From Methanotrichaceae archaeon (lineage in GTDB: Archaea > Halobacteriota > Methanosarcinia > Methanotrichales > Methanotrichaceae), in contig CAVVKN010000010.1 of NCBI GenBank assembly GCA_963748825.1, positions 32,001 to 96,000 on the forward strand: 64,000 bases of DNA, read 5' to 3'. How positions within the stretch are numbered: position 1 is the stretch's first letter; every line of letters begins with the position of its first letter. This document shows, one piece after another, positions 17,191 to 23,160 of this stretch. The position numbers were made by a program, and so were the translations under genes. The notes below the pieces were generated by a model. The model ran no database searches and was not told the origin of the DNA. It saw only the letters and a list, made by a program, of their open reading frames with translations.

Positions 17191-17538
17191 ATGGCCAGAG
17201 ATCTGAATGAGAGGGACCTGCAGATTTTAATAAAGCTGGTTCCGGAGCTGGAAGCGCTGCAGAAGAAGGGAATTGAGATTGAGTACCTGAATATTCTGCC
17301 TCCTGTGGCCAATCACCACTCCCGGAGCGTGCAGGAGTTCGAGCAGCGCTTGAAAAAGCTCTCTGTCGAGGATATGCGCTATCTGGCCGACCTGGTTTTG
17401 GAGGGGACGGAGAGTACCGGCTGCCTTTATCCCGATTTTGCCGAGGTCTTCTTCACTGTGGCCGGGCAGATGCTTTCAGAGAGCGTGGCCGATCAGCTCC
17501 GGGAGGCATACGAGTCGGGTGAGGGATGCGGAGGATAA
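17191..17538 (+). CDS. Conserved hypothetical protein
   Basis: ORF with host-like GC content; ILPPVANHHS and ESTGCL segments; its 3' end is duplicated at 18461-18544. Confidence 0.7.
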   Translation: MARDLNERDLQILIKLVPELEALQKKGIEIEYLNILPPVANHHSRSVQEFEQRLKKLSVEDMRYLADLVLEGTESTGCLYPDFAEVFFTVAGQMLSESVADQLREAYESGEGCGG

Positions 17539-17540: not shown

Positions 17541-17785
17541 ACATCTGGCTAAAAATGCAATTGGAGCGCCCGGCCAGCTCTCGGGCGGGCCCGCTTGCAT
17601 GCGCACGCGTGGGGACGGCAGCCGGCCTTGGGCAGCTTCTCGACATGTTGCCCCATGCATGCGGGTGGAGCGGTGGCGAAGAAGGCTGGGCTCGTCGGGG
17701 TCAGATGAGTGCTAGCAAGAACGTAAGACTCTAGAAGGCCGATATCTTCGCAATGCTTATAGCCTCGCAGGAAGGAGTAAACATC

Positions 17786-17941
17786 ATGGCAGGAGCTGAA
17801 AGCAAGAAGCTATCACTTACCGTCGAGGATGATCTCAAGATCGTGGCGGGATCCCTTGAAGGCCTGGCAGAACATCGGGCTGGCAAAGGGAAAAGCTTTG
17901 ATAGCGTTGATGATCTTAAAGCCTATCTGGAGAAGCTCTGA
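17786..17941 (+). CDS. Antitoxin of a RelE-type toxin-antitoxin pair
   Basis: 51-aa ORF with AAGGAG RBS, 5 nt upstream of the toxin; C-terminus GKGKSFDSVDDLKAYLEKL resembles the antitoxin at 63693-63887. Confidence 0.75.
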   Translation: MAGAESKKLSLTVEDDLKIVAGSLEGLAEHRAGKGKSFDSVDDLKAYLEKL

Positions 17942-17946
17942 GGGGC

Positions 17947-18213
17947 ATGGCGTACATCTTACGCCTCACTCCCAGATTTGAGAAGAACTTTCAGCGGCTC
18001 ACTAAGAAGGATCATGTTTTGCGGGATCGCGTCTATAACAAGCTCTCCGAGATCCGCGATAACCCATTCATCGGTGAGACGCTTAGTCATAACCTGGCTG
18101 GCATGATGAGCACCCACGTTGGCAATTGGGTGATTATCTACATAGTTGAGGACGAAATGATCGTCCTTCTGAACTTCGATCACCATGACCGTGCCTACTT
18201 CAGGCCGCTCTAG
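17947..18213 (+). CDS. RelE/ParE family toxin
   Basis: 88 aa: YILRLTPRFEKNFQRL, NPFIGETL, HVGNWVIIY, FDHHDRAY. Confidence 0.85.
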   Translation: MAYILRLTPRFEKNFQRLTKKDHVLRDRVYNKLSEIRDNPFIGETLSHNLAGMMSTHVGNWVIIYIVEDEMIVLLNFDHHDRAYFRPL

Positions 18214-18460: not shown

Positions 18461-18544
18461 ACCGTGGCCAGTCAGATTCTTTCGGAAAACGTGTCCGATT
18501 AGCTCCGGGAGGCGTACGAGTCCGGGGGGGTGCGGGGGATGAAA
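18461..18544 (+). repeat. Degenerate direct repeat, copy 2 (gene-end remnant with an internal stop)
   Basis: Translates TVASQILSENVSD*LREAYESG, compared with TVAGQMLSESVADQLREAYESG in copy 1. Confidence 0.85.
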
Positions 18545-19000
18545 GAGCGCCTGTGGTGGTGCTAATATATGCAATTATATATTTTAGTTGCAAGTAAAAA
18601 CCACCAAACGACGACAGATCAATTGGCCTAGACCGCGCTGAATACTATCCTGAGCTACGACGCTGATCGCAGTATTGCTCCAGAGCCTGCTGGACTCTTC
18701 GGCGGTCTCGTTCCTTACGCAAGCGGAGTTGCAGGGCGCGATGCAGGTGTTGGCAGGCCGCCTTTTCATCCCCATCGGGCAACAAACATTCCACCGCAAA
18801 GTGATAATGGTTGAGCGGGTTTGTCTCGTCCAAGCTTAGCGCTTCATTAAAGAATTGCCTGGCTAGGGCGAAATCTTTTCGCCGTGCAAGGAGAACGCCG
18901 AAGGTAGAAAGGATGAGCGCCTGCCCTTGCCGCTTGGATACGCATTTCAAGCCTCGTTCCAGTATCTTCTGGGCTGTGCTATCGTCGCCATGTCTGGCCT

Positions 19001-19790
19001 CCATCAGTGCCCAGACCTGATACACCGAAACGCTTTTCGGATCTGTCTGTGCGGCCTGTTGGAAGAGTTCACGCGCCCGCTCGTAGTTGCCCTGCTCCTT
19101 TTCCATCAGTGCCCAGGCCTTATACGCAAAGGCGTTATTGGGATCGGCTTGTGCCGCCTGCTCGAATAGTATCCGCGCCTGCTCATGGTTACCCTGCTCT
19201 TTTTCCATCAGTGCCCAAGCCCTATATACAGGGGCATGTTTGGGATCGGCTTGTGCTGCTTGCTGGAAGAGTTCACGCGCCCGCTCATAGTTGCCCAGCT
19301 CCTTTTCCATCAATGCCCAAGCATGCAAGGCGTGTGCATGTTTGGGATCGACCAGCAAGGCCTGTTGGAAGAGTTCACGTGCCCGCTCATGGTTACCTTG
19401 TTCCTTTTCCATCAATGCCCAAGCCTGAAAAGTGTGTCCATGTTTGAGATCGACCTGTGCAGCCTGTTGGAAGAGTTCACGCGCCCGCTCATGGTTACCT
19501 TGTTCCTTTTCCATCAATGCCCAGGCCTGAAAAGTAACCGGGTCTTTTGGATTAGCCCATGCCCCCTGTTTGAAGAGTTCACGCGCCTGCTCATAGTTAC
19601 CCTGCTCTTTTTCCATCAGTGCCCAGGCCTGATACACAGGTGCATGTTCGGGATCGGCCTTTGCGGCCTGTTTGAAGAGTTCACGCGCCCGCTCATGGTT
19701 ACCCTGTTCCTTTTCCATCAATGCCCAAGGCTGCAAGGTGCGGGCTTTGTTGGGGGCTACCTCTGCAGCCAGCTTGAAGAGTTGGCGTGA
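19001..19790 (-). repeat. Intragenic tandem array of about 8 x 102-bp units encoding 34-aa HAT/TPR repeats
   Basis: CCATCA(G/A)TGCCCA recurs at 19001, 19103, 19205, 19307, 19409, 19511, 19613 and 19715; consensus xAWALMEKEQGNxERARELFQQAAxADP. Confidence 0.95.
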
Positions 19791-20843
19791 TTGTTCGATT
19801 TGTCCCCGTCGTTTGAATGCCAATGGTAGCTGACTGAGTAGTTTGCGCTCGGGCAAGAGCGGATTGGACTGGAGCAGACTTCCCAGGGCTTGGTACAGAT
19901 CCTGGTAGAGGTAAGTATCTTCTGGCAGATATCTGCCGCAGAGTAATCCCAGGGCGGCCTCAGCTATCCAGGGGTGGCGGGTATTGAGCAGCTGCTCTTC
20001 CTCGGTACTGATTTCGAGCAGTTCGCCCTGCAAGGGATGAAGCAATCGGTGAGTAATCCTGTCCTCCTTCATGCTAACAAACCCTGCAAGCAGTGGGCGT
20101 GTCATTCCGAAGTTGAAACGGTGCACCAAGGCAATACCGGCATAGCTGCGCAACAGGAATTCTGTTGTTTCTTGACCGTGCCTTTTGGAGAGATCTTCGA
20201 AGACGCTTTCCAGAATTTGCCCAAAAGATTGGCCACGCCGCGCCGTCAGTAGGGCGGGAAGAAGTTGTCCGTCAGCCTCCAGGCGGTCCAAAAAGTGACT
20301 TACACGTTGGTCAGGTGAGAGGCTGGCTAGGGCACCCAGAGCATCGGCCTGATCCAGGCACTGCAAGAGATCTTGCACCTCGTCTTTCTGCAGCCGATCC
20401 AGCCGAAATTCTCGCAAGTAGGCCATGCGCTGGAAGGCGCTCCGAAGTTCGCTATTTTCCCAATCGTGCTGCCGGGCGCTTCCCAGCACGATGAAAGGCA
20501 GGCCGCTTTCGGCCAGGTCGGAGATCAGGTTGGGGAGTTTTTCTTCATAGGCAATCTCGTCAAAGCATATAACCAATCGTTGTTCCCCTGTCAGCGGAAG
20601 AAGGTAACTGCTCAGGACATGGCCGTAATGTCGCCATAAAACTGGGTGGCCGGCCTCAGCCAGTTTCCAGGCAGCGCGCATCAAGAGAGTGGTTTTTCCT
20701 TCCCCGGAAAGGCCGGTGATGATGCCTACGCGTTGAGCAGGCAGCTTAGGGTCGGTAACGAATTTAAGCAGATCGTCAAGCATGCGACGAGGGGAGTCGT
20801 GTTGTGCTGCAATATTCGCCCAATTGGGGCGCGTGCCATTGTA

Positions 20844-20859
20844 AAAGTCAGAAAGTCAG
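20844..20859 (+). repeat. Perfect 8-bp tandem duplication AAAGTCAG-AAAGTCAG causing the NLR frameshift
   Basis: Directly visible; deleting one copy restores the reading frame (233-8=225 nt). Confidence 0.9.
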
Positions 20860-21057
20860 CAGGGGTGCGCGATCCTTGCATAGTGCGAAAGTCCTCGTCC
20901 AACGGATGATAGGCAAACTCTCCCTGGGCCGAAAGGGAAACCTGGTTGCCGTCCCCGGTGATGATGACCGTTCTGGTGGCATCGCCCTCAATTGTGACCT
21001 GCTGCGCAGTCTCCATCTTGCTCCTTCATCCGTCTTTAATTCTCGTCGGATATTGCA

Positions 21058-21482
21058 TCATTTGACTTGATTGCTGTCTCCGGTGACAATAACGCTCCCA
21101 CTGACATTCCCGCCAATAGCCACCGATCGCTCACCCCTAGCGATAGCCTTAACATTGCTGGCCTTTGCCTCCTGCCACATGCGGGAAACTTCATCCGCCA
21201 GTTTTTCATCCTCTGCCAGGATTTTCTTAAGCTGCAAGCGCAAGGCCGCCTGTGCGTCTTCATCTTTTGGAGCCGCTACTACATCCGTCACCGCCTCTAG
21301 CGCCGCAGGCTTGGCCTCGACCTTAGGGCGTAGTTTTCCCCACAATCCTTTAGCACTTTCCAGAGCATCTACGCCAAGTTTCTTGCTCGCTTCCTCGGCG
21401 GCCTTCCCGCCCAACTAACCAGATCTGGAAGGAAAGGGGCGAGGAAAGCGGTTATTTCTGTTGCCAATATTGTAACGTCCAT
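21058..21482 (-). pseudogene. Bell/HeLo-like small helical effector with C-terminal amyloid-like motif; 1-nt deletion near 21416 (141 aa when repaired)
   Basis: MDVTILATEITAFLAPFLPDLV continues in another frame as LGGKAAEEASKKLG...LWGKLRPKVEAKPAALEAV...DEDAQAALRLQLKKIL; ends ARGERSVAIGGNVSGSVIVTGDSNQVK. Confidence 0.8.
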
Positions 21483-21491
21483 CGGACATCC

Positions 21492-23002
21492 GAACATGCT
21501 CAATACGTTGAATTTTGCATTAAGAATACGACCGCAAAATATAATTAGTTTTGGATACCTATCTAAAACTAATGGCAGCAATTATGGTGGACGGCATAAT
21601 CAATATCGATCCAGATAAGATCGACTTTGATGATAAAGATGCTGTTAAGAACATCATAATCGCTCTTCTTGGTACCATCGAGCATCTCGTTCAAAGGGAT
21701 ACTAAGCATCAAGAAGTGGAACAACAGCTTAGGGACGAGATAGCGATATTAAAAGGAGAAAAAGGAAAACCTAAAATACGGCCAAATGTCCCAGCGAGAG
21801 AACCACCCGTTCCGAAGCCCATAATCCAAAGTATGGTCGAAGGATTCTAAGAAAGACAAAGTAAAAGTAGACAGACAAGTTACTGTTTCTGTGAAAGGCA
21901 CATTACCATCCGATGCCCGATTTATAGGCTATCGAAAGGTAGTAATCCAAGACGTAATTCTGAAAACAGATAATGTCGAGTACCTGTTGGAGAGACATTA
22001 TTCTCCCTCACTGAAGAAATACTATGATGCAAAGCTCCCTGAAGAAGTCAGAGGGTCGCAGTTTGGAGCTAATCTCAAGGCACTTACGGCAATTCTATAC
22101 ATCTCGTGCCGGGTAACTGAGAACAAAATGTGCCAGCTATATAAAGACATAGGCATATCAATATCTGAAGGCCAAATCTCTAATATCATTACCAAAGAAA
22201 AGCACTTTGAACTTGCTCAGGAAAAGCAAGCTATATTTGAGGCAGGAATGAAGCATGCTAAGTTCATCCAGACAGATGAAACCGGAGCAAGACACCAAGG
22301 AAAGAACCAATATGCACATGTGGTGTGCAATCCATACTTCACTTGTTATTTTATACGGCCAGATAAGAAAAGAGATACCTTGAAAGCCATTTTTGGTCTT
22401 GGTAAAGATGAGCGTTTGAATATTCCTTTGATAACTGATGATGCAAAACAGTATTATAACTTGTCTATAATATGTTGTCTATGTTGGATTCACGAAATCC
22501 GCCATTACAAGAAGTTGAATCCGTATTTAGGATATTATAAACAGATACTTGATTCATTCCTAAGTGAACTTTTCGAGCTTTATCGAATTATTCAACTATT
22601 TAAAATTTATCCAAATTACATTCTCAAAGAGTATATTCTATCGAGATTCGAGGCCCTCATCTTCAAGTCTTATGGTTATAACGAACTTGAGCTGAGATTA
22701 ACCGCAACTTGGGGAAATCGAGATCGATTGTTTCAGGTTCTGGATTATCCATATATTCCGCTCCATAATAACGAGTCTGAAATAGCAGCTCGCGAACCTG
22801 TTGTTAAGAGAAAGATCAGCTACGGAACAAGATCAGAATTGGGCAAGTGCGCATGGGAAAACGGTTTATCTATTAAGGATACGTGCAGAAAACTTGGGGT
22901 GAGCTTCTTTCAATATATGCACGATATTTATTCAAAATCATTTGCCATGCCGAGGCTAGCTGAGATACTGACTATTGCCCAATCATAGTATTGAGCATGT
23001 TC
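21492..23002 (+). mobile_element. IS66-family-like insertion sequence (single-ORF, ISBst12-like size), 1511 bp
   Basis: Perfect 15-bp TIRs GAACATGCTCAATAC (21492-21506) and GTATTGAGCATGTTC (22988-23002); 8-bp target duplication GGACATCC at 21484-21491 and 23003-23010; AT-rich. Confidence 0.92.
21572..22988 (+). pseudogene. IS66-like DDE transposase, frameshifted around 21815-21835
   Basis: N-terminal coiled coil LRDEIAILKGEKGKP; downstream frame WSKDSKKDKVKVDR..., QTDETG, ITDD, CWIHEIRH, HNNESEIAAREPVVKRKISYGTRS. Confidence 0.85.
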
Positions 23003-23027
23003 GGACATCCCTCAACATATGTCAAAT

Positions 23028-23035
23028 CATATAAG
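23028..23035 (-). promoter_or_regulatory. Putative TATA box of the effector-NLR operon, now separated from it by the IS
   Basis: Minus strand CTTATATG lies about 27 nt from ATG 21482 once the IS and one TSD copy are removed. Confidence 0.5.
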
Positions 23036-23160
23036 CTCTAAGCTGCAATCTACGGAGTATTCTGTTGAAGTTGAATTAAAGCTATTCCCAAAAAATAAAA
23101 TAGCCTGCCGCAGATTAAAATATCCTATTCTCTATTGAACCCGGTTTTTTGTATGATAGG

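Follow-up and report, generated by a model that had tools for sequence, protein, structure and literature searches.

Bell-domain effectors, bacterial amyloid signalling sequence (BASS) motifs and the NOD-like receptor (NLR) pairs that go with them were described by Dyrka et al. 2020 (10.1101/2020.01.06.895854). In the available text of that survey, NLRs were defined by an NB-ARC or NACHT domain, BASS motifs in this gene context formed fibrils and prions, and a Met-Asp start followed by a hydrophobic helix is reported as the signature of Bell, HeLo and related domains. Archaea are part of this picture: Bell domains were found in 94 of 1183 archaeal genomes, two matching motif pairs were seen in Methanosarcinales and a Bell protein of Methanothrix soehngenii was shown (10.1101/2020.01.06.895854), which bears out the caution of an earlier, sequence-only reading of the locus studied here (the original prediction) that some archaeal BASS-like hits may already be reported. 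Here we analyse a window of 64,000 nt from contig CAVVKN010000010.1 of a Methanotrichaceae archaeon (a 25-contig draft genome), in which two collinear genes on the minus strand (18645-21482) specify a small helical effector followed by a STAND NTPase/TPR receptor. We conclude that this pair is probably a pseudogenised copy of a two-gene Bell/BASS-type NLR module.

A second described system, Bab/Agp of E. coli ECOR25 (BASS11), has linked amyloid signalling to phage defence by abortive infection (Ibarlosa et al. 2024, 10.1101/2024.11.07.622273). In the available text of that study EAD10 is the N-terminal module of Agp-type proteins, and the EAD10-type motif of Bab/Agp was found experimentally to form amyloid and prion-like foci (10.1101/2024.11.07.622273). 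On the receptor side, the accessible parts of Kaur, Burroughs, Iyer and Aravind 2020/2021 (PMC7159879, PMC8195603) name nSTAND1 and nSTAND2, and the NTPase of our receptor belongs to nSTAND5. No discussion of nSTAND5 paired with such motifs was found in the searchable literature, supplementary tables excluded, so this pairing may be unreported. Accordingly, the suggestion that the whole combination may be undescribed holds in part: the Bell/BASS-NLR organisation was published in 2020, whereas an nSTAND5 clade bearing such motifs may be a modest novelty.

A gene pair with a shared motif

Both genes are read from the minus strand, and each is interrupted by one frameshift. Their features are as follows.

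21416-21482, minus strand: 5' piece of the effector gene, starting at ATG 21482, with the conserved N-terminal hydrophobic helix MDVTILATEITAFLAPFLPDLV
21415-21416, minus strand: effector frameshift caused by a 1-nt deletion (coding strand AAG to AG)
21058-21414, minus strand: 3' part of the effector gene (118 codons and the stop), covering the remaining helical domain and the C-terminal motif
21064-21129, minus strand: effector-side motif RSVAIGGNVSGSVIVTGDSNQV, its 20-residue core at 21064-21123
20860-21016, minus strand: 5' piece of the receptor gene, starting at ATG 21016, with the motif and a conserved linker (...FAYHPLDEDFR...PADF)
20939-21004, minus strand: receptor-side motif QQVTIEGDATRTVIITGDGNQV, NLR residues 5-26, its 20-residue core at 20939-20998
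20844-20859, minus strand: 8-bp tandem duplication CTGACTTT/CTGACTTT (copies 20859-20852 and 20851-20844) that shifts the receptor frame
20451-20852, minus strand: nSTAND_NTPase5 domain (PF25199) with Walker A GLSGEGKTT and Walker B LVICFDE
18645-19835, minus strand: TPR/HAT-type repeat sensor region and stop codon, from domain matches and the tandem array
19000-19727, minus strand: 102-nt (34-aa) tandem array in the receptor, 7.1 copies with 79% matches

The 3' frame of the effector (21414 to 21058) translates to 118 aa with the C-terminal end ...ARGERSVAIGGNVSGSVIVTGDSNQVK, and the intact 141-aa homologs P0005, P0006 and P0009 begin with exactly the same residues as the 5' piece MDVTILATEITAFLAPFLPDLV. 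Once the frame is repaired, the effector has 141 aa between ATG 21482 and the stop at 21058. A gap of 41 nt (21017-21057) separates it from the receptor, which at ATG 21016 reads METAQQVTIEGDATRTVIITGDGNQV and which, past 20844-20859, continues in an open frame of 735 codons up to the stop at 18645. The coordinates, motif positions, 41-nt gap and 11/20 motif identity given in the original prediction all proved correct on the minus strand.

The link between the two genes is the motif at the end of the first protein and the beginning of the second. The two copies are identical at 11 of 20 positions, or 11 of 22 when the two preceding residues are included, and their local alignment score is 57. 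In 5000 composition-preserving shuffles of the receptor N-terminus this score was never reached (maximum 40), and the best of 5372 N-termini from the same genome, taken from open reading frames (ORFs) of at least 100 aa, likewise scored 40. The motif match is not due to chance. Both RSVAIGGNVSGSVIVTGDSNQV and QQVTIEGDATRTVIITGDGNQV are devoid of P, K and L and rich in G, N, V, I and T, a composition of the BASS type. A complex prediction made from two copies each of receptor residues 1-55 and effector tail residues 78-118, with alignments, gave a score of 0.29 for a mark of 0.32 and carries no weight either way.

By analogy with the described systems, we infer amyloid templating and membrane attack by the effector as the activity of an intact module. 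The repeats of the intact receptor would bind a trigger, after which the NTPase would drive receptor oligomerisation and bring the N-terminal motifs together, so that they could stack into a beta-arch (amyloid-like) nucleus. Such a nucleus would serve as a template for the matching motif at the C-terminus of the 141-aa effector, and the clustered effector would damage the membrane through its conserved N-terminal hydrophobic helix with the Met-Asp start. The predicted outcome would be cell death, as abortive infection or programmed cell death.

Relatives of the receptor and the effector

The receptor matches the Pfam model nSTAND_NTPase5 (PF25199) with an E-value of 3.6e-24 and 85.7 bits against a cut-off of 34, and domain search identifies its repeats as TPR/HAT-type. 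An enzymatic domain was sought in the receptor by domain search and not found, in agreement with the earlier description of a receptor without an enzymatic effector domain; the four NTPase motifs that accompanied this description are all present, as FYNGTRPNWANI, GLSGEGKTT, LVICFDE and TRHPWIAE. With motif, nSTAND5 and TPR/HAT repeats, the protein has an NLR-like tripartite architecture. An NCBIfam match to LcrH_SycD (106.1 against 104.8) was rejected as an assignment: it is a summed TPR signal and not that of a chaperone.

This architecture is common in the clade. Among 65 nSTAND5 relatives, 51 begin with a short motif and have the same order of motif, NTPase and repeats; in others the first domain is TIR (2), caspase, SIR2 or DUF4062, and four sequences are truncated. 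The NTPase had been likened to a STAND type usually fused to SIR2-like effectors, a statement that fails for the nSTAND5 clade because only 1/65 carries SIR2 and 51/65 the short motif. One relative (P0163) has an N-terminal extension of about 50 aa, which starts with a hydrophobic helix and lies ahead of a degenerate motif; judged from this layout, it may be an 'all-in-one' form.

The effector belongs to a family of 443 homologs (E-value of at most 0.01), mostly 141-142 aa long and found, among species genomes, mostly in Chloroflexota, Acidobacteriota and Cyanobacteriota, with a few other phyla besides. At least 90% of the family conserve M1, D2, L6, L14, P16, L18 and P19. AlphaFold2 (AF2) models contain helices from residue 3 to residue 112 or 113, including one at 3-14, and the tail at 111-141, which holds the motif, has a predicted local distance difference test score (pLDDT) below 50 in these monomer models. 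The N-terminal helix contains polar T, E and D residues and is amphipathic rather than clearly transmembrane. By the 2020 definition a Bell effector has an all-alpha N-terminal domain of about 100 aa within a total of about 120-140 aa, a hydrophobic first helix with a negative charge at residue 2 or 3, and a neighbouring, mostly collinear NLR gene whose N-terminus matches its C-terminus; AEB69174.1, Q9RDG0 and RCJ33357.1 are among the named Bell proteins, and Pfam, NCBIfam and PADLOC contain no Bell model. The effector and its relatives show each of these features and appear to be of Bell type. The nearest ESM Atlas clusters (0.96-0.97) consist of unnamed proteins about 138 aa long from Actinomycetota and Cyanobacteriota; one cluster (0.94) has HetE-N in 14% of its members, which serves as a lead only. 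In the plasmid collection, relatives of the effector occur on only 3 cyanobacterial plasmids, all annotated as hypothetical.

The ends of these proteins vary. The same helical domain bears several unrelated tail motifs, such as RSVAIGG..TGD, QNVTGNQNQVIGQ.. and HGSGAVAQG..AAG.., among others, and the neighbouring protein carries the matching one. In P0018 and P0045 (and in P0060 by precomputed Pfam), a second C-terminal stretch after RSVAIGG..TGD matches EAD10 (PF19954), and effectors of the P0018/P0045 type therefore bear two different signalling motifs in tandem. In 11 of 60 family members, the SVAIGG stretch gives sub-threshold matches to the YadA_head beta-roll repeat (best E-value 0.0044), a hint that the effector motif may resemble a solenoid repeat unit.

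Next, we surveyed the neighbourhoods of stand-alone effectors at 55 loci with at least 1500 nt downstream, where a partner was defined as an ORF of at least 250 aa whose N-terminus scores at least 50 against the effector tail. A matching neighbour was present at 31 loci, in 26 of them downstream on the same strand. Partners comprise NB-ARC (13/38), nSTAND1 (10/38) and AAA_16 (19/38) proteins with TPR or WD40 repeats, and nSTAND5 accounts for 2/38. Viewed from the receptor side, 32 metagenomic nSTAND5 loci have a Bell-profile gene directly upstream in 13 cases and another motif-ended ORF in 6 more. The architecture proposed in the original prediction, a helical protein with a C-terminal motif beside a STAND/repeat protein, thus recurs in many genomes, and the effector domain with its motif has been swapped among NB-ARC, nSTAND1 and nSTAND5 receptors. 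One of those six ORFs (L119:185-1207, plus strand) encodes a PRTase-CE protein (PF24390, E-value 9e-46) whose end carries the same motif, with the nSTAND5 receptor downstream of it; an enzymatic effector thus uses the same adaptor motif. Intact orthologs of the window pair, for example L112, L103, L106 and L111, provide material for cross-seeding and toxicity tests.

Matching motifs in homologous pairs were also expected to co-vary. Between motif families they do: across 37 pairs the mean score was 79.1 for cognate and 42.2 for non-cognate combinations, with the cognate partner ranked top in 15/37. Within the motif family of this locus, however, the signal is weak, as discussed below.

Lesions and origin of the archaeal copy

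The two frameshifts are apparent from comparison with intact relatives. In the effector, the window has ...LVSWAGRPP... in place of the ...LVKLGGKAAEE... of intact 141-aa homologs; one A is lost, and with it the frame after codon 22. In the receptor, intact NLR homologs read ...PADFYNGTRP... where the window has CTGACTTT twice in tandem, and the frame is lost after codon 55. When the DNA is aligned with that of L112, an intact ortholog pair from a metagenome (75.5% identity), only two in-gene indels appear: the window is short by 1 nt at about 21416 and has the extra CTGACTTT. A contig of a related strain (sequencing run X2) differs in the same way, with the 8 bases at 20844 absent and one extra base behind 21415; over 892 window bases it has 48 other letters and 10 gap letters. 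The sequencing runs compared each contain at most 0.34 of the sampled words (0.08 for an RNA run), and no run of the same strain covers either frameshift site. The X2 contig, free of both window frameshifts, has a 1-nt gap of its own near 20702, in the Walker A region, at a depth of 4; this gap may be an error or else a frameshift of independent origin. We rejected programmed frameshifting as an explanation of the window breaks, since relatives have neither the 8-bp duplication nor the 1-nt deletion.

A third lesion lies immediately upstream of the effector gene, in a segment of low GC content (0.37-0.41 against about 0.55). Its features are:

21492-23002, plus strand: IS66-family element with a 99-aa ORF, a 365-aa DDE transposase and terminal inverted repeats
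21484-21491 (left copy) and 23003-23010 (right copy): 8-bp target-site duplication GGACATCC
23011-23040, minus strand: displaced native upstream region of the effector gene, with the TATA-like TTATATGA at 23027-23034

IS66 elements make 8-bp target duplications, and this insertion sequence (IS) is bounded by terminal inverted repeats with GGACATCC at both ends; its transposase matches DDE_Tnp_IS66 (PF03050) with 69.8 bits against a cut-off of 23.1. The X2 contig preserves the empty site, running from 21491 straight into sequence equal to window positions 23011-23040 with one mismatch, and because of this we place the insertion about 10 nt before the effector ATG. The native upstream region of the effector was moved 1.5 kb away in the process. 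Without the IS element, TTATATGA would lie about 29 nt before the ATG, a position and sequence suggestive of a promoter. A second IS66 copy on the same contig (G000:C10:122131-123431) is 98.9% identical over 1308 nt, and the contig therefore holds at least two copies.

Three hits (the IS element, the 1-nt deletion and the 8-bp duplication) in one 2.8-kb operon make it most likely that the module is dead here, that is, inactive in this genome and a decayed relic. The original prediction had held that two frameshifts hide the pair from the ORF track; the frameshifts are real, but the copy also bears the IS insertion, which brings the independent lesions to three. Broken genes were observed at other Bell-like effector loci as well. 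In L095 (genome G009) and in L116 (a metagenome) the helical and motif parts are in separate frames, and L025, from a Roseiflexus metagenome-assembled genome (MAG), has an in-frame stop between profile positions 40 and 42. These cases suggest frequent decay of Bell-like effector genes.

The distribution of the subtype fits an origin outside the genus. Within the window's genus the family profile was matched in 8 of 59 genomes, and this subtype was present only in the window genome and in G047, a genome whose L012/L092 locus is labelled Methanotrichaceae. Other Methanothrix-genus genomes have distant Bell-like genes with motif pairs of their own (profile A2, E-values from 2e-26 to 1e-3). In a tree of the effector helical domain (a quick tree from 115 columns, with many unresolved forks and an unknown root), the window protein forms a pair with that of the Methanotrichaceae MAG (SH-aLRT 97), and this pair falls inside a group of 49 rows, mostly Chloroflexota and Acidobacteriota, apart from the other Bell-like proteins of the genus. 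Those receptor relatives that carry a name are 47-59% identical and belong to Anaerolineae/Chloroflexota and Roseiflexus. Judged by the tree and these identities, Methanotrichaceae appear to have acquired the subtype from a bacterial clade rich in Chloroflexota. The Methanotrichaceae MAG also offers a variant: at L012:4018-7434 (plus strand, G047) an effector about 79% identical to that of the window, and among its nearest relatives, is followed by a 1139-aa protein with motif, CHAT, STAND and TPR parts, which is not nSTAND5 and in which the motif match is weaker (score 40).

A broader interpretation, which we offer tentatively and hold to be somewhat short of an even chance, is that the nSTAND5-TPR proteins are a large unreported clade of motif-signalling NLRs, one module of which crossed from Chloroflexota-like bacteria into Methanotrichaceae. 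It is based on the observation that about four in five of these proteins start with an RSVAIGG...TGD-type motif and that many adjoin an effector, Bell-type or other, with a motif at its tail. Published BASS surveys, because they required NB-ARC or NACHT, would have overlooked nSTAND5 receptors. If the interpretation is correct, an amyloid-signalling cell-death module has been transferred between domains of life. The locus suggests movement of such modules between bacteria and methanogens living in common anaerobic habitats; about the physiology of the organism the window copy says little beyond the gain and loss of such modules.

Just downstream of the NLR gene, the window also contains an ORF for a ParE/RelE-type toxin (88 aa; PF05016, E-value 2.9e-09) with a 62-aa ORF upstream of it (17753-18213, plus strand). 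This cassette is flanked by a 70-nt direct repeat of 81% identity (17455-17524 and 18461-18530).

Competing explanations and known systems

Several results count against the assignment of the pair to a decayed Bell/BASS-type module. At 24 of the 55 well-flanked effector loci the retrieved flanks contained no matching partner. In the nSTAND5 motif family, cognate pairs score barely above non-cognate ones (means of 62.1 and 59.2), a difference as high in 869 of 20000 permutations, and for the window effector its own receptor ranks 17th of 17. Pfam, NCBIfam and PADLOC gave no match above cut-offs to the small protein or its pieces, and a Foldseek search of the Protein Data Bank (PDB) with the two AF2 models (pLDDT 65-67) gave none at an E-value of 0.001 or below. 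A second look with VIA reached a best Z of only 4.2. The fold scores of the effector lie in the range of generic helical bundles, and they neither support nor disfavour a bundle of the HeLo, MLKL or coiled-coil (CC) type. Finally, the 1-nt deletion could be an assembly error, since no run of the same strain covers the site; for the 8-bp duplication such an error is unlikely.

An alternative that concerns the motif itself is that it acts as a non-amyloid homotypic adaptor, a short beta-solenoid-like or strand-exchange module that recruits the effector in fixed stoichiometry without prion-like templating, comparable to the effector-associated domains (EADs) of NTPase conflict systems. The extra EAD10-matching stretch of some family members and the weak, below cut-off YadA_head matches on RSVAIGG (11/60, best E-value 0.0044) fit this proposal, as does the retention of side-specific residues, with TIQGNA..T on the receptor and AIGGNVSGS on the effector and no convergence between them. 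However, the EAD10-type motif of Bab/Agp is itself reported to form amyloid and prion-like foci (10.1101/2024.11.07.622273), BASS motifs in the same gene context are reported to give fibrils and prions (10.1101/2020.01.06.895854), and the motif is disordered in monomer models, as expected of templated motifs. We therefore consider a non-amyloid adaptor unlikely.

The role of the small protein can be questioned separately: it might be a regulator, decoy or scaffold of the receptor that uses the same motif, rather than a membrane-damaging executioner. The absence of a family annotation (Pfam, NCBIfam, PADLOC) and the amphipathic character of its N-terminal helix, which is not a clear transmembrane segment, speak for this, together with the lack of a significant fold match to pore-forming helical domains in Foldseek and VIA. 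A sequence-profile search of the PDB with the effector gave a best E-value of 0.13. In the Foldseek list, Rx-CC stands at rank 8 (E-value 2.3) and MLKL at rank 31 (E-value 3.5); the wide VIA fold search, using the same models of pLDDT 65-67, peaked at a Z of 5.2, shared by five structures of which the ZAR1 CC (root-mean-square deviation 4.7 over 78 aa) is one, and a Bab structure was absent among the fold-search matches. Against this, sister loci place an enzymatic effector (PRTase-CE) at the same position with the same motif, sister receptors have TIR, caspase or SIR2 in place of the motif, and the conserved Met-Asp start with its hydrophobic helix is the signature reported for Bell and HeLo domains. 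A regulatory, decoy or scaffold function is, on balance, distinctly improbable.

Also conceivable, though very unlikely, is that the pair is intact and working, the frameshifts being assembly errors and the IS element either supplying transcription or leaving it undisturbed. The genome is a draft of 25 contigs, the 1-nt deletion resembles errors of some assemblies, and no run of the same strain covers either site. Yet consensus errors do not typically take the form of an 8-bp tandem duplication, one 2.8-kb operon holds three independent lesions, the IS element has clean inverted repeats and an 8-bp target duplication with the empty site in a related strain, and the broken Bell-like genes elsewhere (L095, L116, L025) indicate that decay is common. 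Accidental similarity between functionally unrelated neighbours, for which one could cite the mere 11/22 identity in a low-complexity segment, is hardly credible given that 0/5000 shuffles reached the score, that the genome-wide control stayed at or below 40 against 57, and that dozens of loci from several phyla show the same arrangement.

A decayed Bell/BASS-type module thus remains our preferred reading, and the comparison with known systems places it as follows. The fungal HET-S/NWD2 system (HeLo domain with HRAM motifs) has the same logic, in which an N-terminal motif of an NLR templates the C-terminal motif of an adjacent helical, membrane-targeting effector; unlike the window pair, it has NACHT and WD40 and is eukaryotic, and similarity in sequence or fold was not detected in these tests. 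As far as described in the accessible parts of PMC7159879 and PMC8195603, EAD-coupled NTPase/nSTAND conflict systems share with the receptor a STAND core with repeats and short N-terminal adaptors that are exchangeable with TIR, caspase and SIR2, and they are enriched in multicellular prokaryotes. In contrast to those systems, the window motif matches no Pfam EAD model.

Bab/Agp is closer in gene organisation. In the available description it too combines an adjacent small helical Bell-related executioner carrying a C-terminal motif with a TPR-containing sensor carrying an N-terminal motif, and in some relatives of the window effector an EAD10-type (Agp-type) motif is present in addition. By the same description, Agp is without an NTPase (TPR-GreA/B-C-PIN), Bab has 109 aa and the motif belongs to another family; the function of Bab/Agp has been demonstrated, whereas that of the window pair is predicted from its relatives.

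The closest match is to the Bell/BASS pairs, taken as described in the available text of Dyrka et al. 2020. The window pair departs from them in its receptor NTPase, which is of the nSTAND5 type where that survey had NB-ARC or NACHT, and in that its copy is broken. In both, a protein some 140 aa long has an all-helical N-terminal domain, whose first helix is hydrophobic, and an acidic residue at position 2; its C-terminus carries a motif of roughly 25 residues in which G, N, Q, V and I are frequent; and an adjacent collinear NLR starts with the match and contains self-similar TPR repeats. The phyla are also the same (Cyanobacteria, Chloroflexi and Methanosarcinales, including Methanothrix), as are the 'all-in-one' and alternative-effector variants. 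The locus adds to the Bell/BASS NLR-effector class an archaeal example with a different NTPase clade, and it is this class that links prokaryotic defence to the amyloid-controlled cell death of fungi and animals.

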